Part shown: positions 8,172 through 16,661 of the stretch, one piece after another
How positions within the stretch are numbered: the stretch's first letter is position 1
How the letters are laid out: every line of letters starts with the position of its first letter
Assembly (NCBI GenBank): GCA_040755315.1
Contig: JBFMBF010000012.1
Span: 1-36,316 of the forward strand
DNA length: 36,316 bases
DNA from: Candidatus Hadarchaeota archaeon
Lineage (GTDB): Archaea > Hadarchaeota > Hadarchaeia > Hadarchaeales > Hadarchaeaceae
Reading direction: 5' to 3'
The notes under the pieces: model-generated
Seen by the model: the letters and a program-made list of their open reading frames with translations, nothing else
What the model was told of the DNA's origin: nothing
Databases searched by the model: none
Translations under genes and position numbers: made by a program

Positions 8172-8266
8172 TGGTGCGGCGGGCGGGATTTGGACCCGCG
8201 TAGCAGGCTTGGGAAGCCTGAGTCTCTTGGCAGCTTTTGGCTTTAACCAGGCTGGACCACCGCCGC
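8172..8266 (-). tRNA. tRNA-Gly(CCC) with an 18-nt BHB intron at 21/22 (8226-8243); CCA encoded
   Basis: Acceptor GCGGCGG/CCGCCGC-ACCA, anticodon arm CAGGC-TTCCCAA-GCCTG, BHB TGGT-TA^A...GCCA-AG^A. Confidence 0.92.
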
Positions 8267-8290: not shown

Positions 8291-9085
8291 TTAAAGCCTC
8301 TCCCGGGCTACTTCGGCGAACTCTGTTTTAGTAACCAGACCGACCAGCTCCCCCTCGAGGTTCACCACCGGGAGCCCAGAAAACCTTTTTTCCAGCATGA
8401 GTCTCGCGACATCACAAAGTTTCTCATCAGTGCGCGTGGTCACGGGGGGCTGGGCCATGACATCCCCCACAAGGAGGTTGCGGATGCGCTCGCTCTTGAA
8501 CCTGTCCGGGACGACATCCTGAAAGTCGACCAGCCTCATGGCGACGTCCCTCATTGTAATAACGCCGACGAGCTCCCGGCTGTCCATCACAGGCAGGAGC
8601 AGCAGGTCCTCCTCAAGGAGGAGCTTGCGCGCGTGTATGAGCCTGTCCTGTGGGGAGACTGTAGTTGGGTTGGCCTGCATGACCTCCCCGACGTAGATGT
8701 CCTCGTAACCGGCGCAGATTTTTGCAAAGTCCAACTTTGTGACCACTCCCACCAAGGCTCCCTCCCGAACGACAGGCAGGCCGCTTATGTCCCTTTCAAG
8801 CATGAGCTCGGCAGCCCTCTTCGCGGTGACATCAGGCTCCACCGTGACCGGGTTGGCCGTCATCAGGTTGGAGACATGGAGCCTCCCGGGAGGAAGGCGG
8901 TAGGCGTGAAGCGACCCCATCTCCCTTGCTATGTCCTTCTCAGTCAGAACGCCGACTATCTTCCCGACGTGAGTGGCAACAAGACGCGAAACCTCTTGTT
9001 TTTTCATGAGGTCAACCGCGACGATTAGCTCGACATCCTTGTCGACGGTCACCGCTGGAGAACTCATTATCTGGCTAACCCTCAT
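8291..9085 (-). CDS. CBS-domain protein (4 CBS)
   Basis: Repeated ISGLPVV...LVGVVTKLD-type CBS motifs. Confidence 0.9.
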   Translation of the reverse strand: MRVSQIMSSPAVTVDKDVELIVAVDLMKKQEVSRLVATHVGKIVGVLTEKDIAREMGSLHAYRLPPGRLHVSNLMTANPVTVEPDVTAKRAAELMLERDISGLPVVREGALVGVVTKLDFAKICAGYEDIYVGEVMQANPTTVSPQDRLIHARKLLLEEDLLLLPVMDSRELVGVITMRDVAMRLVDFQDVVPDRFKSERIRNLLVGDVMAQPPVTTRTDEKLCDVARLMLEKRFSGLPVVNLEGELVGLVTKTEFAEVARERL

Positions 9086-9950
9086 GGTACAACCTGCCTA
9101 TTTCCTTAACAAAGTCTGTCTTGGTCAAAATGCCGGCTAGTTTTTCATTCTCGACGACCGGGAGCCCGCTTATGCCGTGCTTGAGCATGAGTCCCGCCGC
9201 CTCGGCAGAGTCCGACTCCGGCAGAACTGTGATTATGTCCGAGTGCATTATGTCCTCCGCCGTCAGCAAAGCAACCTGCTTAACATACCTGGCCATCGGC
9301 CTGGAGGCCCTTTCCAGCTTTCTGGTGTACCTGACCTCGCGCTCCTTCATGCCCCGACCAGGCTCCTCCATCCTGGCAAACCCAACGTCGCTCTCGGAGA
9401 TTATTCCAATCGGCCTTTCCCCAACCACTACCACGACCCTCGCCACGCCGAACTCCTCCATAAGTTCCACCACGCGGGCGATGCTGTGGCCCCTGTTGAC
9501 CACAACAGGATTCTTTGTCATCAGTTCATCCACCCTGGACTTGCCGCGCAGCTGCCCGGCAAAGTGCCGCGTAAGGTCTGTTTTTGTGAGCATCCCCGCG
9601 ACCTCTCCATCCTCAAGGACCACAAGGCTACTTATGCCGTGGTGCAGCATCAGACGCGCGGCGTTGCCCAACTCCGTCCCCATTGAAACTGTGACCAAGC
9701 CCTTGTGCATCACCCGGCTGATGGGAATCTGGTCTATCTGCCTTCTCCTCCACTCTGGGGCGCCCCTGCTGAGGTGCTCCGCCACATCATGCATGGAAAG
9801 CATCCCCACGGGTTTGCCCTTCTCCATGACCACCAGTCGCCCGACCCCGTGGCGCAGCATCAGGTTCTTGGCGCGGGCAACCGTGTCAGTCGGCCTAACG
9901 GCGATTACTGGACTGCTCATCGCGCTTTCGACCTTGATTTCCGACTTCAA
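9075..9950 (-). CDS. CBS-domain protein (4 CBS)
   Basis: CBS motifs; TTG 9950 overlaps the upstream TGA and has a GAGGT RBS. Confidence 0.88.
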   Translation of the reverse strand: MKSEIKVESAMSSPVIAVRPTDTVARAKNLMLRHGVGRLVVMEKGKPVGMLSMHDVAEHLSRGAPEWRRRQIDQIPISRVMHKGLVTVSMGTELGNAARLMLHHGISSLVVLEDGEVAGMLTKTDLTRHFAGQLRGKSRVDELMTKNPVVVNRGHSIARVVELMEEFGVARVVVVVGERPIGIISESDVGFARMEEPGRGMKEREVRYTRKLERASRPMARYVKQVALLTAEDIMHSDIITVLPESDSAEAAGLMLKHGISGLPVVENEKLAGILTKTDFVKEIGRLYHEG

Positions 9951-10846
9951 ACCAACAACCTCAAAAGATCGCGCTCGGTTATTATCCCTAAGAGTTCCCT
10001 CCCCGAGACCACCGGCATCCCCCCGCAACCCTTTTCTTTCATGAGCGCCGCTGCCTCCCCGACATCCGCGTCCGGAGAGACGCTTATAACTTCCTTGGTC
10101 ATTATTTCCTGTACTTGGCCTCCAAAAATTCCTCCCTCAGGGTTTGACCGCATCCTCTCAAAGGCCCTCCCAGAAGCAAAATACCTCAAGATGTCCACTG
10201 TTGTCACTATCCCAACCAGTTCCCGGCCACGAACCACGGGGAGTCTTCTCACTCCACGTGAGACAATCCTCTTTGCCGCCTCATTTATAGAAAGCTCCGG
10301 CTCGGCCGTGACCAAGTGCCTGACCATGTAATAGCTCACTGCCGTCCCTGCCGTGGGCGGGACGAAAGAGATGAAGTCCCTGTCGGATATTATTCCCTCT
10401 ACCTGCCCTTGACGGTCCAAAATCGGTGCCCCGCCAAAGCCGGTCTGCAAGAGCAACCTGGCTGCCTCCTCCATCGACATTGTAACCTCCCCGTGGGGAA
10501 AATCCCTGACCATGATTATATTAACCGGCTCGTTCACGGCGGCGTGGAAGTTATCCTTGAATTTGGCTCTGATTATCATGTTCTTTTCGCCCCCGCCTAG
10601 AAAGTCGACTATTTCCCTAGACCTCACCATCCCTTCAATCCTTTTTGTCCCTGGCCGGATTATGGGGAGCCGTCTAACCTGGTGTTTGACCATGAGCTCC
10701 GCAGCGGCCTTTATTGGAGTTGTTGGCGGAGCAGTGAAAACTGACTTTCTTGCTATCGCCATGATGTCTCCCTCCTTCTTGTGGACGTGCGACTTGAATG
10801 ATAGCGGACCCCTGTCGTGCGACTGGTAGTGCAAAGCTCTCTTCAA
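9947..10846 (-). CDS. CBS-domain protein (4 CBS)
   Basis: VRRLPII, VRRLPVV, GIITERD motifs; TTG 10846 follows GGGTGA. Confidence 0.88.
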   Translation of the reverse strand: MKRALHYQSHDRGPLSFKSHVHKKEGDIMAIARKSVFTAPPTTPIKAAAELMVKHQVRRLPIIRPGTKRIEGMVRSREIVDFLGGGEKNMIIRAKFKDNFHAAVNEPVNIIMVRDFPHGEVTMSMEEAARLLLQTGFGGAPILDRQGQVEGIISDRDFISFVPPTAGTAVSYYMVRHLVTAEPELSINEAAKRIVSRGVRRLPVVRGRELVGIVTTVDILRYFASGRAFERMRSNPEGGIFGGQVQEIMTKEVISVSPDADVGEAAALMKEKGCGGMPVVSGRELLGIITERDLLRLLV

Positions 10847-10850
10847 CTCA

Positions 10851-11663
10851 TCACCCGCACGCTGCCGCCACGACATCATACCTAGTTATGATTCCCACTA
10901 GGTCGTCATTTTCCACAACTGGCATCCGCCCTATGTTTTTCCGGACCATTACATCAACCGCTTCCACAACTGGCGCCTTGGGAGATATTTTCAGCGCGGG
11001 GGTGCGCATGATTGTTTTTACCTTCGGGGAGGCCCGTCCCTTGCGAGACTCCTCGGATATCCTCGCCGTCCCCGTTCCTATTATGTCCGAGCGGGAAATT
11101 ATCCCGACGACCCTTTTCACGCGCCTTGCTCGGTCGTAGCTGACAACAGGGATCCCCGAGTACCTGGCCTGCTCCATCTGTTCCCAGACCTGGCGGACAT
11201 CGTCTTCTCCTGAGCAGGACACAACTTCTTTTGTCATTACAGATTCAACCAGAAGCTTCGGAGAGAACTTGCTGGAAATCTTGCGCAGGACATCCTCCAT
11301 TTTGACCAGCCCCACGACCGTCCTGTCTGTTTGATTTTGAAGCACTGGCATGTCATTGACATCCAGCTCGGCCATCTGCCTCGCAAGCTCTGACAATGGC
11401 ATCCCCGGCGTTACCAGCAGCCGGGTTGGGAACATCACACCTGAAACCGGAATGTTGGAGCGGGTTGAGGTGACCTGCATAACTTCCCGCGGGGTCAATA
11501 CCCCTTCCAGCCTCCCGCCGTCAACAACAGGAAGGGTCCGGAGCCCATTCTCACGCATCATTGCCCTGGCCGTCGTCACCGGCTCTCGGGAGCTGATGAA
11601 CACTGTGCAGGGCTTCATCACGTCGCTGACGCGGAGCCCCGCCAGCATGTCCCTACATGACAT
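10851..11663 (-). CDS. CBS-domain protein (4 CBS)
   Basis: LRTLPVV, YSGIPVV, IGRMPVV motifs; ATG 11663 follows GAGGA. Confidence 0.88.
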   Translation of the reverse strand: MSCRDMLAGLRVSDVMKPCTVFISSREPVTTARAMMRENGLRTLPVVDGGRLEGVLTPREVMQVTSTRSNIPVSGVMFPTRLLVTPGMPLSELARQMAELDVNDMPVLQNQTDRTVVGLVKMEDVLRKISSKFSPKLLVESVMTKEVVSCSGEDDVRQVWEQMEQARYSGIPVVSYDRARRVKRVVGIISRSDIIGTGTARISEESRKGRASPKVKTIMRTPALKISPKAPVVEAVDVMVRKNIGRMPVVENDDLVGIITRYDVVAAACG

Positions 11664-11671
11664 TTTATCCT

Positions 11672-12202
11672 CTACTCGCCAGAAGTATCGCGGCAGTTCT
11701 CGCAGACCCACATCCCATTTACTTCGTAAAGGGCGTTTGTGACCTCGCCGCAGGACTCGCAGACGCTTTCTTCTATTTCTTCCTTCATCGGCTCGTTTGG
11801 TCGGGATGCCGCCTCAAGTATGTCCGGGGATATCGCGGTTATGTCGGCGGAAGTTATGATGCCGATCAGTTTTCCATTTTCCACGACTGGGAGGCGCCTT
11901 ATCTTGTTTTTTGACATGATTTTCGCGGCCTCCGTGACATCGGTGTCTGGAGTTATCGTCATTATCGGAGAAGACATCACCTTCTCAACGAGAACCTTGC
12001 TGGGTCTCAGATCTTCGCTCACCACCTTCTCCAGAACATCCCTCTCTGTCAGAATCCCCACGGGCGTCTTTCCTTTCAAAACAACTATGCTCCCGACGCT
12101 GCGGCTCGCCATCAACTTTGCGGCTTTCGCCACTGTAGTCGCTGTGGTTGCTACGAGAACTTTTGCGGACATTGCCTCTTTTACCGAAACTATTTTTTTC
12201 AT
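11672..12202 (-). CDS. CBS-pair protein with C-terminal zinc ribbon
   Basis: Two CBS motifs plus CESC...CENC; start at ATG 12202 or GTG 12229. Confidence 0.9.
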   Translation of the reverse strand: MKKIVSVKEAMSAKVLVATTATTVAKAAKLMASRSVGSIVVLKGKTPVGILTERDVLEKVVSEDLRPSKVLVEKVMSSPIMTITPDTDVTEAAKIMSKNKIRRLPVVENGKLIGIITSADITAISPDILEAASRPNEPMKEEIEESVCESCGEVTNALYEVNGMWVCENCRDTSGE

Positions 12203-12268
12203 TTCCACCAATCGTGAATATTGCGGCACTATTTAATATATTCGCGTGGTTGACTTTCTGGGGATTGC

Positions 12269-12979
12269 TTGAGCGTTGAAGACTGGAAAATCGCTGCTGC
12301 CGAAGCTGCCGCCAAACTTGTGAGGGCGGGGACAGTAGTGGGGCTGGGATCAGGAACCACTGTTGCCGAGGTTGTCGGGGCCATCGCTAGGCTCAGGCCT
12401 AAAGCAACATTCGTGCCGGCCTCGTCATCTACTGAGAAGCTGGCCAAGAAGCTGGGGCTGAAGTTGGACTCTCTGAACAACCACGACAAACTGGACTTGG
12501 CGATTGACGGCGCCGACGAGGTGGACCCCAAGTTCAACATGATAAAGGGCCACGGAGGGGCGCACACTCGGGAGAAACTTGTGGCGGCTGCGGCCAAACG
12601 ACTTGTAATCGTTGTAGATTCAACCAAGCTGGTCCTGAGGATTGGCGAACGTTCGCCAGTGCCTGTTGAGGTTCTGCCGTTTGCCGTTGGTTACGCCGAA
12701 AGGGAGCTCTTGGCGCTTGGCGGACACCCAAAGCTGCGGGCGGTGGCCGGACAAAAGCCGTTCGTTACTGATAACGGGAATTACATTCTTGACGTGAAGT
12801 TCCACAGGATTTCCGACCCGGAGAAGCTTGAGCTGGAGATAAACAAAATTTTGGGTGTGGTGGAAAACGGAATTTTTGTTGGAATGGCGGATGAAGTTCT
12901 GGTGGGACACGAGGGTGGCTGCGCGAGGCTGAAGTCGAGACGGGATTTCCTACAGTTCATGCGGAAGACTAAAGCTTAA
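12269..12979 (+). CDS. rpiA: Ribose-5-phosphate isomerase A
   Basis: GLGSGTT, DGADEVD, IKGHGGAHTREK, TDNGN, GVVENGIF. Confidence 0.96.
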   Translation: MSVEDWKIAAAEAAAKLVRAGTVVGLGSGTTVAEVVGAIARLRPKATFVPASSSTEKLAKKLGLKLDSLNNHDKLDLAIDGADEVDPKFNMIKGHGGAHTREKLVAAAAKRLVIVVDSTKLVLRIGERSPVPVEVLPFAVGYAERELLALGGHPKLRAVAGQKPFVTDNGNYILDVKFHRISDPEKLELEINKILGVVENGIFVGMADEVLVGHEGGCARLKSRRDFLQFMRKTKA

Positions 12980-13003: not shown

Positions 13004-13154
13004 GCCGGGGTGGCCCAGCTGGCTAGGGCGCCAGACTCATAGCCTCGTCGTCGGCTGTGAGTGCTGATTCACGAGATGATGTGAGAAATCTGGAGACCGC
13101 GGGTTCGAGTCCCGCCCCACTGTTGGGGTTCCCCCTACAGGGCGAACGGCACCA
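13004..13154 (+). tRNA. tRNA-Met(CAT), elongator type, with introns at 37/38 (13042-13087, 46 nt) and 68/69 (13119-13146, 28 nt)
   Basis: GCCGGGG pairs with CCC^CGGC-ACCA only after removal of the second intron; both introns have exact 3-4-3 BHB motifs. Confidence 0.9.
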
Positions 13155-13888
13155 CTGAACCTGGAAGAAATCCTGGTTGCCACCCGCTGCCACCATTCTC
13201 CTTCAAAATCAGTAAATAACACGTGGATGTTCATACAGCCAAACAGTTCTATTGCATCACGAGTAATGATTCTCTTGGACAATAGCTCAGAATGCAAAAT
13301 TACAATGCATTTTGCACCTAATTTTTTGTTCGCCACATGACATTGATAAAGCAACTTCCCAATTATGCGGTGTCTATTCTGTAACCTGCGGTCGGAATCT
13401 GGACAACAAGGCAAAATTTTAGTAACATGAAACGAGTACAAAATCCCGTCTTTGGCCATGACTAAATCACCCATACCATTATTACATGTGACTCTTTCCG
13501 GATATTCTTTGAATTCGTGCTTTGCTAGTTCGCAAAAAAGTAATCGCCCATCTAAATCTTCTATTGTTTCTGCTGAAGACAGCCCAAATTCAGATGGGTC
13601 AAACACCACATTTACTTTTCGATTTCTTTTTTCTGGAGTCAAAACATTATTTGGCATGTATTTTGTTACAGCTAGGTTTATGCCATATCTATTATCTGAA
13701 TACAATTTATTTCCAAAAGCACCTGTATGTATCTCTGCTTTTGAAATGTTTCTGTCAAATTTAGCTATTACAGTTATGTTTTTGCTTTCGCATTTTTCTA
13801 AAAGGGACTTGCAACTGAATGAAAGAACAACCGTTTTGTTATTGCTCATGAGACGAATTCTGCCATTGCGGATTGTCAATTGCCCCAA
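13037..13888 (-). CDS. AT-rich orphan, possibly PD-(D/E)XK restriction-endonuclease-like
   Basis: GDLVMAKDGILYSFHVTK and IIGKLLYQ resemble PD-(D/E)XK elements; TTG start after GGGGGATGA; 3' end reads antisense into tRNA-Met. Confidence 0.55.
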   Translation of the reverse strand: MGQLTIRNGRIRLMSNNKTVVLSFSCKSLLEKCESKNITVIAKFDRNISKAEIHTGAFGNKLYSDNRYGINLAVTKYMPNNVLTPEKRNRKVNVVFDPSEFGLSSAETIEDLDGRLLFCELAKHEFKEYPERVTCNNGMGDLVMAKDGILYSFHVTKILPCCPDSDRRLQNRHRIIGKLLYQCHVANKKLGAKCIVILHSELLSKRIITRDAIELFGCMNIHVLFTDFEGEWWQRVATRISSRFSGAVRPVGGTPTVGRDSNPRSPDFSHHLVNQHSQPTTRL

Positions 13889-14085
13889 GTCATCCCCCTT
13901 ACTGAATTTTAGAGACGAATTTAAGCGAATTTTGGGGAGAGAGGTCAGCGAAAGTAAAAGCGAAGGCGTGGCCGTGGGCGGCGTCAGACAGGCGATTTGA
14001 GGCGGTTATTTGGCACTTTTTCACGACATTTCGGGCGGCGGCGAAAGTATTACAATAAAATTATTCCGTCCCGCCCCCGGCACTA
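13155..14085. mobile_element. tRNA-Met-anchored islet remnant (no integrase)
   Basis: AT-rich cargo between the tRNA 3' end and a repeat of that end. Confidence 0.6.
14068..14085 (+). repeat. att-like copy of the spliced tRNA-Met 3' end
   Basis: GTCCCGCCCCCGGCACTA vs mature GTCCCGCCCCCGGCACCA (17/18). Confidence 0.85.
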
Positions 14086-15186
14086 CTTTCTCGGCAATAT
14101 TTTCCACATGACTGGGATGGAAACGAGCCCCACGAAAGAAAAAATCAAAAAAACTGCGGCCGGGCTGAAGGCGTCCGCAAGCGGACCGCCTATCCCTGAA
14201 AATACGCCCCAACCAATCATCGCCACCATGTTGAAGATGCCCATCAACAGGCCAAGATTACCCTCTCCGCCTTTTGATATCATGCAGACCACCGCAGGGT
14301 AAACCAGTGCCTCAGAAATTGAAAGGAAAATAACGAAAACTGCAATGAAGAAATAACCTGTGACCAGCGATATGCCTGCCGATGCTGCCGAAGCGATAAA
14401 TATTCCTAAAAGAATAATCGGCCTGTGCCCAACCCTGTCAGATATTTTCCCAAATGGAGAAAACAGCAGGGCCCTAACCAGGGTGTAGATTGCAACCAAG
14501 GCACCTACCAAAAACTCGGGCATGCCTAAAGATTTTGTCGCGTAAACGGGAAGGAGAGTGAAGAGGAGCGCCACGAACCCGACGTACATCACAGTGGGTA
14601 AAAATGTGGGGATGATTGGCCTCAAATCAACCTTCTTTTTAATCTGTTTGGGTTTTGGAAAAGAAATCGTGGTAACGATTGCAGTGGCCGCAAAAGCGAT
14701 GCAACCACTGATGAGAAAAGCTGCCCTCGCCCCAACCGAGGTGTATAGCAATCCCCCGACTATCGGACCTATCCCAATGCCTGACGCCCAAAATGTTGCA
14801 TACGAACCCATCGCTGCTCCCCTTTTCTCTGCAGAGGAAAAATCGGCCACGGCGCTCTGGGTGGTAACCCACACGGGTGTCTCGGCGGCGCCCTGGGCAA
14901 GCCTCAGGACCAGGAGCCACACAACCGAGCTGGACAGGGGATACAGAAGAAAGATGAAAGCTGCTGAAAGAAATCCTCCGACTATGAAAGATTTTCTCCC
15001 CTTCCTGTCGCCGATTCTTCCAACAGGCACGGAAAGGGCGGCGTTGAAAACCACGTAGGCGACGCCGAGCAAGCCGATTTCGGTGTAACTTGCCCCGAGG
15101 TCTATCGCCGCATAGAGAGGGATAACAATCGCCAGTATCCCCACGGAGAGGGATATCACGAATGTCGAGATCAGCAGGCGGCGCAT
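14083..15186 (-). CDS. MFS transporter
   Basis: About 12 hydrophobic helices; motif A GRIGDRKGRK and GKISDRVGHR; start ATG 15186. Confidence 0.92.
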   Translation of the reverse strand: MRRLLISTFVISLSVGILAIVIPLYAAIDLGASYTEIGLLGVAYVVFNAALSVPVGRIGDRKGRKSFIVGGFLSAAFIFLLYPLSSSVVWLLVLRLAQGAAETPVWVTTQSAVADFSSAEKRGAAMGSYATFWASGIGIGPIVGGLLYTSVGARAAFLISGCIAFAATAIVTTISFPKPKQIKKKVDLRPIIPTFLPTVMYVGFVALLFTLLPVYATKSLGMPEFLVGALVAIYTLVRALLFSPFGKISDRVGHRPIILLGIFIASAASAGISLVTGYFFIAVFVIFLSISEALVYPAVVCMISKGGEGNLGLLMGIFNMVAMIGWGVFSGIGGPLADAFSPAAVFLIFSFVGLVSIPVMWKILPRK

Positions 15187-15227
15187 ATTGGAAAATATAT
15201 TGAAGGTGTTAAATAGGCTCGAGTGAA

Positions 15228-15914
15228 ATGGGTATGATGCTGAAGCTTCCAATAGTGGTTTTGAACCTGAAGACATACAAGGAGGCCACCGGCGAAAGGG
15301 CCCTGGAGCTGTGCAAGCTTGTGGAAGATGTTGTCGCAGATTACGGCACAAGCGTTGCCGTTTGTCCCCAGCATGCAGACATCTACAGGATTGCAAGCAA
15401 GGTAAAAATCCCGGTCCTAGCGCAGCATGTCGACCCTGTGACGCCGGGGAAGAACACGGGATGGGTCACCCCGGAAGCTGTCAAGGCGGCCGGGGCGGTC
15501 GGAACACTTCTGAACCACGCGGAGCACAAGATTCCAATTGAGCAGATGAAGAAGACTCTTGAGCTGATCAGGCCGCTGGGGTTTTCTTCAATAGTCTGCA
15601 CAGCCGACATCGAGGAAAGCAAGGGGGCGGCGGCTCTCGGCCCGGACATGATTGCCGTCGAGCCCCCAGAGTTGATTGGCAGCGGAGTGTCGGTGTCGAA
15701 GGCGAAGCCTGAGGTGGTCAGCGGTTCTGTCGACGCCATCAAGAGGGTGAACCCGAAAGTGGAGGTCCTGTGCGGTGCCGGAATCACGACCGGGGACGAC
15801 ATCATCAAGGCGATACAGCTCGGGACAAAAGGGGTGCTGCTGGCCTCGGGCATTGTGCTCGCGAAGGACCAGCGGGCGGCAATTGAGGACATGGTCAGGG
15901 CACTCCCAAGATAA
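15228..15914 (+). CDS. tpiA: Triosephosphate isomerase (archaeal type)
   Basis: NLKTY, AQHVD, LNHAE, AVEPPELIG, CGAGI, GVLLASG. Confidence 0.96.
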   Translation: MGMMLKLPIVVLNLKTYKEATGERALELCKLVEDVVADYGTSVAVCPQHADIYRIASKVKIPVLAQHVDPVTPGKNTGWVTPEAVKAAGAVGTLLNHAEHKIPIEQMKKTLELIRPLGFSSIVCTADIEESKGAAALGPDMIAVEPPELIGSGVSVSKAKPEVVSGSVDAIKRVNPKVEVLCGAGITTGDDIIKAIQLGTKGVLLASGIVLAKDQRAAIEDMVRALPR

Positions 15915-15947: not shown

Positions 15948-16053
15948 GCCCCGGTAGCTCAGCTTGGCGGAGCGACTGAAGGCAGCTGTCGAAACTTGTA
16001 GCCAAGCGCAAGAAATCAGTAGGTCGTGGGTTCAATTCCCACCCGGGGCTCCA
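15948..16053 (+). tRNA. tRNA-Thr(TGT) with introns at 30/31 (15979-15993, 15 nt) and 37/38 (16001-16014, 14 nt)
   Basis: GCCCCGG/CCGGGGC-T-CCA; spliced anticodon arm ACTGA-CTTGTAA-TCAGT; two BHB motifs; U73 discriminator. Confidence 0.92.
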
Positions 16054-16141: not shown

Positions 16142-16366
16142 ATGGCGGCAACAACGATAAAAATCCATTCTGACACGGCAAGCACCCTCCGGAAGTTGGG
16201 CGATAAAGGAATGACTTACGATGAGATAATAAACGAAGTTGTGTCCGGCTATCTGGCTTTCGTCGACGAGCTTTACCAGCGGGCCAACGAGCCAGTCGTG
16301 GGGAGGCCACTCCGGGAGGTAATGGATGAGCTTGAAAGTGACACTTCACCCCGACGCCGAAGATGA
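16142..16366 (+). CDS. RHH-type antitoxin
   Basis: TTIKIHSDT...LGDKGMTYDEII pattern; overlaps the downstream toxin. Confidence 0.75.
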   Translation: MAATTIKIHSDTASTLRKLGDKGMTYDEIINEVVSGYLAFVDELYQRANEPVVGRPLREVMDELESDTSPRRRR

Positions 16367-16661
16367 TTTAAGACGCATATTCAAAAAAGACCGCGAAAAT
16401 TATCGCAGGATTGCAAACGCGCTCGAGAGGTATGCGGAGACTGGCGTGGGTGATGTTCGAGTGGTCGTGGGCGCCAAAAAACCGGGCGAGCGACCGCTTC
16501 TCGCGCTAGTGGTTGGTAAAAGATGGTGGAGGGTTTTTTTCAGCATTGCGGACGAGACAATATACGTGGTCCACATAGAGCGACGCCCAGCGGCCTACCA
16601 ACCGTGGATTGTTGACGCCGCACGTCGCAGGTTAAAACATTATGGTGTGGACGCGCCGTAA
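16326..16661 (+). CDS. RelE/ParE-family toxin
   Basis: KVTLHPDAEDDL...WRVFFSIADETIYVVHIERRPAAY. Confidence 0.8.
   Translation: MSLKVTLHPDAEDDLRRIFKKDRENYRRIANALERYAETGVGDVRVVVGAKKPGERPLLALVVGKRWWRVFFSIADETIYVVHIERRPAAYQPWIVDAARRRLKHYGVDAP

Follow-up and report, generated by a model that had tools for sequence, protein, structure and literature searches.

In a 36,316-nucleotide stretch of DNA (hereafter the window), which is taken from contig C12 of a Hadarchaeota genome (G000, 1.21 Mb, 86.6% complete), we identified an elongator tRNA-Met(CAT) gene whose 3' acceptor strand is interrupted at position 68/69 by a bulge-helix-bulge (BHB) intron of 28 nt. Comparison with orthologous loci shows that this intron belongs to an inserted cassette, that the native tRNA end has been displaced to the far side of the insert, and that close relatives carry empty alleles. 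The intron is of a kind already known, its position is unusual, and the element that brought it is still present at the locus. We think it probable that a free-standing homing nuclease replaced the end of the tRNA gene, with the intron breaking the nuclease target and splicing keeping the tRNA working. The preliminary description of this DNA gave positions 13111-13154 for the intron, and the more important finding lies beyond these, in that the 3' end of the tRNA has been replaced by a nuclease cassette of which the intron forms part.

The tRNA-Met(CAT) gene spans positions 13004-13154 of the plus strand and contains two introns, one of 46 nt at 37/38 and one of 28 nt at 68/69. Exon 1 (13004-13041, tRNA positions 1-37) and exon 2 (13088-13118, positions 38-68) were delimited from the sequence, ARAGORN and a cloverleaf score, and exon 3 (13147-13154, positions 69-76) consists of only 8 nt and forms the replacement 3' end, with CCA encoded. 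When 13042-13087 and 13119-13146 are removed, a tRNA-Met(CAT) of 77 nt remains, whose 7-bp acceptor stem is perfectly paired according to ARAGORN, in line with the earlier claim that excision of the 28 nt restores this stem, and the spliced form attains 31 of 31 points in our own cloverleaf score. The motif of a 4-bp helix, two 3-nt bulges and an inner hairpin at 13111-13149 is likewise present as had been described. Its central helix pairs 13113-13116 with 13141-13144, the bulges containing the cut sites lie at 13117-13119 and 13145-13147, the inner helix is formed by 13120-13123/13137-13140 plus 13125-13128/13132-13135, and the outer helix comprises 2 bp only (13111-13112/13148-13149), the whole being a strict BHB with flanking helices (inner 4 bp, outer 2 bp). 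The intron (13119-13146, plus strand) occurs as a single copy in the genome. It is inserted after C68, five bases before the end of the gene, and since the insertion cannot slide to the left or right, its ends coincide with the BHB cut sites. When the 28-nt intron was shuffled 200,000 times, 2,936 shuffles gave the central helix alone, and 49 gave a 4-bp helix together with a 4-bp inner helix at these cut sites.

We compared the locus with its orthologs using a DNA search of 61 genomes, 47 of which matched; 30 loci from these, including our own, were compared. The 3' acceptor strand is uninterrupted in all 29 other loci, among them those of both same-genus genomes, which, together with the strict motif, bears out the assignment of a BHB intron to 68/69 in the acceptor-stem 3' strand. 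The gene is the only elongator tRNA-Met that we found in the 86.6%-complete genome, a check proposed in the preliminary description, and the other CAT gene has an Ile-type acceptor stem. No initiator tRNA-Met was among the tRNA loci found in G000; it may be unassembled or heavily interrupted. The genome encodes one EndA (178 aa), RtcB and a CCA enzyme, and in the available part of PMC5829648 a Hadesarchaeal alpha4 EndA with an extra loop is linked to disrupted tRNA genes. Judging from sequence, the 68/69 intron of tRNA-Met is very probably spliced. The expectation that standard finders would call the gene truncated holds for Rfam, whose tRNA match covers model positions 5-66 only; ARAGORN instead called no tRNA in the whole window when introns were disallowed, and a false tRNA-Ser in place of the tRNA-Met gene when they were allowed. 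On the other hand, tRNAscan-SE may find the 68/69 intron because it adds 60-nt flanks to seek terminal introns (PMC8450103).

The cassette extends from 13119 to 14068 (950 bp) and comprises the 68/69 intron at its left end, the replacement exon with CCA, one minus-strand ORF, which is the only long ORF within the insert, and a promoter-like motif. Its GC content is 0.41, and that of the ORF 0.36, compared with 0.54 for the window. At its right end lies the displaced native 3' end of tRNA-Met (14068-14085, plus strand), which is intron-less, overlaps the stop codon of an MFS transporter gene, and carries tRNA positions 59-74 in a form identical to the spliced gene, thereby making a 16-bp direct repeat. 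The native end encodes no CCA, whereas the replacement exon 3 does. The MFS transporter gene (14083-15396, minus strand) is the native right-hand neighbor of tRNA-Met, and the ribose-5-phosphate isomerase A gene (rpiA, 12269-12979, plus strand) is the native left-hand neighbor. Among named relatives, the one closest to this rpiA, at 86% identity, comes from a Hadarchaeota genome. In G002, which belongs to the same genus, the MFS gene is directly adjacent and the site is empty, tRNA-Met joining directly to the sequence found behind the cassette in G000; the aligned right-hand flanks of the two genomes are 86% identical. Since the sequence behind 14068-14085 matches the tRNA-Met flank of G002 and holds the MFS stop codon, this segment is the native end, pushed aside, and since it has no intron, the host gene was still uninterrupted at 68/69 when the insertion took place. 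Therefore, it is very likely that the 68/69 intron arrived with the cassette, which is an optional insertion at a conserved gene, with empty alleles in close relatives.

The ORF (283 codons, 13037-13888, minus strand) is convergent to tRNA-Met; the folded part of its product ends near 13160, and the tail is an antisense reading through the tRNA gene. The product consists of an N-terminal beta domain and a PD-(D/E)XK (restriction-endonuclease-like) domain. Pfam has no family for the ORF, nor for the core of any of its 30 family members, no sequence match to the ORF was found among solved structures, and neither of our two nuclease-family queries was present in the ESM Atlas. In a structure model of the product (pLDDT 93), residues 96-230 resemble PD-(D/E)XK nucleases, namely EndoMS, XisH and the nuclease domain of Can2, which are the top non-dehydrogenase matches with Z of 8-9 and an rmsd of 3.1-4.6 over 112-121 residues; however, Foldseek gave no E-value better than 4e-3, and short-chain dehydrogenases come close to these nucleases in Z. 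The N-terminal beta domain gave no clear fold match (best Z 5.1), and the homing endonuclease I-Ssp6803I is absent among the fold matches listed, where a likeness may still exist. The textbook PD-(D/E)XK motif carries Glu and Lys. Both Asp residues of the motif are invariant in 27 of 27 aligned rows, and the family consensus shows an Asp, Asp, Glu pattern, but the clade of our ORF has His and Thr in place of Glu and Lys, which makes nuclease activity uncertain. We thus regard the product, on a moderate fold match, as a putative nuclease of the PD-(D/E)XK fold without a described family, likely to be active although the motif leaves this uncertain.

A full protein search returned 30 relatives of the ORF, and a second query a clade of 27. 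Two relatives from two other datasets, P0001 and P0031, are 65% identical to the ORF, and their tails, seen in protein sequence only, can be read as antisense to the 3' exon, to an interruption of 29 nt with an ending like that in G000, to the T-arm and to the 37/38 intron. The tRNA-derived part of these tails matches the ortholog L004 at 24 of 31 residues and G000 at 19 of 31, and this better fit to L004 indicates that the host differs. Hence, a second host appears to carry the same or a similar ORF-intron junction. On the other hand, the tail of P0061 runs into a tRNA-Met-type end that has no interruption, which means that some relatives do without the 68/69 intron. We considered P0057 as a third copy of the intron and rejected it as ambiguous, its tail fitting the intron junction at 5 of 5 residues and the intron-less T68 ortholog at 4 of 5. 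Pattern searches for the tRNA-Met intron in DNA recovered 12 matches in metagenome contigs, all of them ordinary tRNAs with chance downstream words, with a pattern that allowed only purines at position 59 and could not have recovered the P0001 host; four matches in 66 genomes of the phylum, real in G000 only, with a pattern that needs an exact T-arm and misses variants; and five matches in viral contigs, all by chance, where no relative of P0001 was found either.

Among the 66 genomes of the phylum, the intact ORF was found in G000 only; the ORF and the tRNA-Met intron were each found in 1/66. A frameshifted family member lies in an AT-rich insert in G001 (locus L052), facing the 3' end of pdxS. 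A profile search identified members in 13/351 and 11/351 genomes of two other archaeal phyla with small genomes, which are probably DPANN; no member turned up in the searched portion of 401 genomes from the phylum to which G059 belongs, in the lone genome G060, or in 300 of 301 mixed archaeal genomes. The 26 loci in the two other phyla abut the starts or ends of conserved genes, which we named by eye from translations: elp3 (7 loci), ileS (5), taw1 (5), rpl11, kae1, purC and others. Targeting of tRNA genes was discarded as a family-wide rule, as none of the 26 adjoins a tRNA. When these 26 loci and the G001 locus were tested together, four of the 27 showed a diverged, displaced copy of the gene end beyond the nuclease that exceeded all 26 cross-locus controls, and a fifth displaced end, at L062, was missed by the test window and found by tblastn (E 2e-5). 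A displaced end is thus kept in 5/27 loci, with none at the other 22/27. That family loci show the same layout at protein-coding genes argues against a tRNA-specific integrase.

This observation bears on an alternative that we consider unlikely, namely, that a virus or plasmid was integrated at the tRNA 3' end by a tyrosine recombinase and has since shrunk to the cassette, the att site having carried the intron, and the nuclease being cargo. Once the intron is removed, the 16 bp of the tRNA 3' end that are directly repeated stand on either side of the insert as attL and attR would, and islands of the SSV1/pNOB8 type have such a repeat at their far boundary as well. However, these islands are expected to hold a tyrosine recombinase gene or a fragment of it within the element, and we found neither in the 950 bp, the sole PF00589 match of G000 being located on contig C40. 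Furthermore, tRNA-targeting integrases would not yield a family that sits at the ends of protein-coding genes, some of them displaced, and the second host shares the ORF-intron junction. A similar case, the insertion in tRNA-Thr(GGU) of Caldiarchaeum subterraneum, is interpreted as recombinase-driven in the available part of PMC3293823. It is likewise a small insert with one ORF that supplies a substitute tRNA end containing a new intron, the old end being left beyond the insert as a fragment (PMC3293823). There, the insertion affects the 5' end at 24/25, measures 1.87 kb, occurs in multiple copies and has an ORF read as a recombinase, whereas here it affects the 3' end, measures 0.95 kb, is single-copy and has an ORF with a nuclease fold (comparison with the same part of PMC3293823).

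The preliminary description had called the position unusual for lying so far 3'. It is unusual, but it is not unique, since a strict BHB intron also interrupts tRNA-Asp at 68/69 in 16 of the 66 Hadarchaeota genomes (loci L079-L097); our tRNA-Asp pattern had matched 17 of the 66 at 19 places, two of which were chance matches. In the 13 distinct tRNA-Asp introns the central helix is kept and the inner helix varies with compensatory changes, and this covariation is good evidence that the 68/69 site is spliced in Hadarchaeota. In G004 and G035, a whole, convergent LAGLIDADG gene faces the tRNA-Asp intron from no more than 30 nt away, and G009, G065 and G066 have partial or broken copies that face it in the same manner. 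Thus, a LAGLIDADG gene or remnant lies directly behind the intron in 5/16 genomes, and an intact nuclease gene is missing in 14/16. We found no displaced intron-less end at the tRNA-Asp loci, and no cassette of the PD-(D/E)XK family behind these introns. As the 16 genomes are kin, the tRNA-Asp introns may go back to a single old gain, after which the nuclease gene decayed.

The promoter-like motif of the cassette (13920-13954, minus strand), a pattern ending in a TATA-like box, also occurs before LAGLIDADG genes of Hadarchaeota. The pattern was built from four of six distinct sites, and its reversed control gave 0 matches. Apart from the site in the window, the motif was found at C44:5018 (plus strand) and C11:2971 (minus strand) of G000 and at L106, L111 and L114; it precedes the PD-(D/E)XK gene and four LAGLIDADG-like genes, and the sixth copy lies behind tRNA-Leu(TAA) with no long ORF after it. 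Since the motif is common to genes of both kinds, it suggests that nuclease genes from different families may swap within one cassette frame. At L111 and L114 (G007 and G030), a LAGLIDADG gene lies directly upstream of a tRNA-Met that has no 68/69 intron.

The tRNA-Asp introns also enter into a second alternative, which appears quite improbable to us, that the intron and the ORF arrived separately, the intron at a permissive site and the ORF as a DNA-binding gene, inactive or unrelated, whose insertion duplicated the end of the tRNA. The use of 68/69 in tRNA-Asp too, the missing intact nuclease gene at 14/16 of these loci, the His in place of Glu in the ORF motif, and the uninterrupted end that P0061 abuts would all fit such a history. 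Against it, the displaced native end has no intron, so that the host gene had none at insertion, and the intron was found only together with the ORF, in the one genome of 66 that has either and again in P0001. A misassembly, or a dead gene copy with an unspliced insertion and a working tRNA-Met in the unassembled part, is very improbable despite the 86.6% completeness of the genome and a junction known from one assembly, given the synteny with the ortholog on both sides, the strict BHB at the exact junction, the independent homolog with the same layout and the conserved 68/69 intron in tRNA-Asp.

Homing by a free-standing nuclease, the explanation that we prefer, is supported by the coincidence of the insertion ends with the BHB cuts, the empty site in G002, the low GC content, the nuclease fold, P0001 and P0031, the location of the family at gene ends, the lack of an integrase in the cassette and the parallel at tRNA-Asp, and it is weakened by the His/Thr motif, the weak E-value, the 0/26 loci beside a tRNA, the 22/27 loci with no displaced end, P0061 and the lack of a displaced end at tRNA-Asp. 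Comparison of the loci shows that a 950-bp cassette, selfish under this model, invaded the elongator tRNA-Met gene at its 3' end, supplied its own last tRNA bases, split at 68/69 by the BHB intron, and moved the native end to the far side. Its single ORF would encode a homing endonuclease, free-standing and from a PD-(D/E)XK family not yet described, which would cut empty tRNA-Met alleles at a site covering roughly the T-arm and the 3' acceptor strand, with the cut predicted to fall between positions 59 and 68, and repair would then copy the cassette into the cut allele. The occupied allele would be immune twice, as the intron splits the site in the working gene and the stub has nothing before position 59. 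EndA and RtcB of the host would excise the intron from an unfolded precursor, in which pairing of the trailer with the T-arm and the 5' acceptor strand may allow the BHB to form before the cloverleaf, with 3' end maturation afterwards. Decay of the nuclease gene would finally leave a lone intron, as may be seen at tRNA-Asp.

Folding predictions agree with the earlier suggestion that the BHB competes with the T-stem and the acceptor stem, as the strict motif costs about 5.4 kcal/mol without the trailer, and its outer helix is not populated. In the presence of the trailer, the cost falls to 1.8-1.9 kcal/mol, and the population of the outer helix rises to 0.25 at 37 C and to 0.43 at 65 C. A trailer segment at 13156-13163 (plus strand) is complementary over 8 bp to the 5' strand and loop of the T-arm and is predicted to extend the outer helix of the BHB, and another at 13179-13185 (plus strand), complementary to tRNA positions 5-11, is predicted to hold the 5' acceptor strand aside, which is suggestive only. 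Controls reached the trailer effect in 21/150 and 12/150 cases at 37 C, and in 6/150 and 1/150 cases at 65 C; with such counts, the effect at tRNA-Met is only suggestive, and any aid that the trailer gives to BHB formation would be modest. In 11 of 15 tRNA-Asp genes, the actual trailer outperformed at least 19 of its 20 shuffled versions, and the trailers of the remaining four are perfectly complementary to the 5' acceptor strand over 7 bp. Stretches of at least 8 bp pairing against the T-arm occur in 6/16 tRNA-Asp genes and in 4/67 control genes, the genes being kin and thus non-independent.

The 46-nt intron at the canonical position 37/38 (13042-13087, plus strand) is kept across the order in the alignment of ortholog loci. 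It looks like a minimal box C/D guide, predicted to direct 2'-O-methylation of C34 in its own precursor. It contains a guide at 13054-13061, a D'-like box CTGA at 13064-13067 and a C'-like box ATGATG at 13076-13081, and C34 pairs with the base that lies 5 nt ahead of the D' box. This pattern could be parsed in 23 of 30 loci (7/30 were not parsed), and C34 is paired in 23/23, with compensatory changes between the guide and the exon-intron junction. One box pair (D'/C'-like) was seen by eye in the 46 nt, terminal C and D boxes not being among these, and no Rfam sRNA match to the intron was found; fibrillarin is encoded in G000. Trans-acting guides for the C34 site exist in other archaea, and our literature search found no intron-encoded C34 guide for tRNA-Met. 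A similar arrangement is sR50, a C/D guide in the intron of archaeal pre-tRNA-Trp (PMC7994747, available part); the 37/38 intron of our tRNA-Met likewise has a guide and box motifs directed at C34 of its own precursor. Our case differs in concerning tRNA-Met instead of tRNA-Trp and in having, within 46 nt, a single guide together with a D'/C'-like pair of boxes (same part of PMC7994747).

G000 is rich in non-canonical BHB introns, with well-scoring census rows at 9/10, in the D-loop, at 30/31 and at 59/60; the census had poor models for about 12 of 50 anchors, and only rows scoring at least 29 were used. Elsewhere in the genome, introns were noted at about 8/9 or 9/10 in tRNA-Ile2, tRNA-Asn (in a nested arrangement) and tRNA-Lys and at 59/60 in tRNA-His (C3:10423, C5:3011, C21:12430 and C27:1635). 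In the window, tRNA-Gly(CCC) at 8175-8266 (minus strand) has a D-arm intron, and tRNA-Thr(TGT) at 15948-16050 (plus strand) has introns at 30/31 and 37/38. Five consecutive CBS-domain genes (8291-12229, minus strand) lie between tRNA-Gly and rpiA, and a small DUF7557 gene with a weak ParE-like gene, probably a toxin-antitoxin pair, directly follows tRNA-Thr (16142-16661, plus strand). A tRNA gene at C23:19357-19512 (plus strand), whose anticodon region contains a long insert with CTGA and ATGATG boxes, is probably tRNA-Trp with its guide intron, and two atypical tRNA-like genes at C8:3474-3377 (minus strand) and C28:10564-10635 (plus strand) fit the standard cloverleaf poorly. Lineage-specific extra introns of tRNA-Met were seen in the anticodon stem in G002 (L003 920-943) and near the 5' acceptor strand in G050 (L022).

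As for known tRNA introns, non-canonical positions in archaea are given as 3/4 to 59/60, "etc.", in the available part of PMC4090602. The introns described there share with ours the strict motif, the restored cloverleaf, a second intron at 37/38 and an intron-rich genome; in contrast, ours lies at 68/69 in the 3' acceptor strand, leaves an exon of 8 nt, and requires both the T-stem and the acceptor stem to open (PMC4090602, same part). Our literature search found no archaeal tRNA intron 3' of 59/60, although tRNA databases and supplementary position tables, which were outside the search, could list one, and, in the same scope, no nuclease cassette carrying a tRNA intron. Among homing systems, collaborative homing of free-standing endonucleases and ORF-less group I introns is described in phages in PMC10448857, and intronless homing by the T4 Seg and Mob enzymes, with SegB in a tRNA region, in PMC2988022 (available parts of both). 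Phage collaborative homing resembles our case in having the nuclease gene outside the intron, an intron thought to break the cut site, and joint spread (PMC10448857). Here, however, a 28-nt protein-spliced BHB intron is found in a cellular archaeal tRNA gene, the gene end is replaced, and the nuclease is of another family. A PD-(D/E)XK homing endonuclease, I-Ssp6803I, resides in the group I intron of a cyanobacterial tRNA-fMet. The use of a restriction-enzyme fold for homing at a methionine tRNA gene is similar to what we propose, but I-Ssp6803I is encoded inside its intron, whereas our ORF is free-standing, and we found no sequence match between the two. In fungal mitochondria, mobile ORFs bring along a substitute for the 3' end of their host gene. 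They show the same gene-end replacement, with the native end displaced beyond the nuclease ORF, but they involve protein-coding genes, GIY-YIG or LAGLIDADG enzymes, and a replacement end without an intron.

The route by which tRNA introns are gained is left open in a preprint on Asgard archaea (10.64898/2026.10.13.758758, October 2026), in which three routes were tested and none proved general, and the word "homing" is absent from its available part. The locus described here offers a gain with all parts in place, i.e., empty same-genus alleles, an intron on the incoming end, the displaced old end and one candidate enzyme, and it suggests a concrete route by which archaeal tRNA genes gain introns. 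It adds the 3' acceptor strand to the places that an intron can occupy, and with an intron there common finders cut the gene short or misidentify it. The locus also draws attention to a nuclease family without a Pfam model at conserved gene ends. More broadly, we see about an even chance that archaea harbor homing cassettes that replace gene ends, including those of an undescribed PD-(D/E)XK family, in which a tiny BHB intron would serve as self-immunity; new tRNA introns would be written even into the 3' acceptor strand, the trailer would refold the precursor, and the cassettes would then decay. If this is true, many orphan non-canonical tRNA introns would be the footprints of such cassettes.
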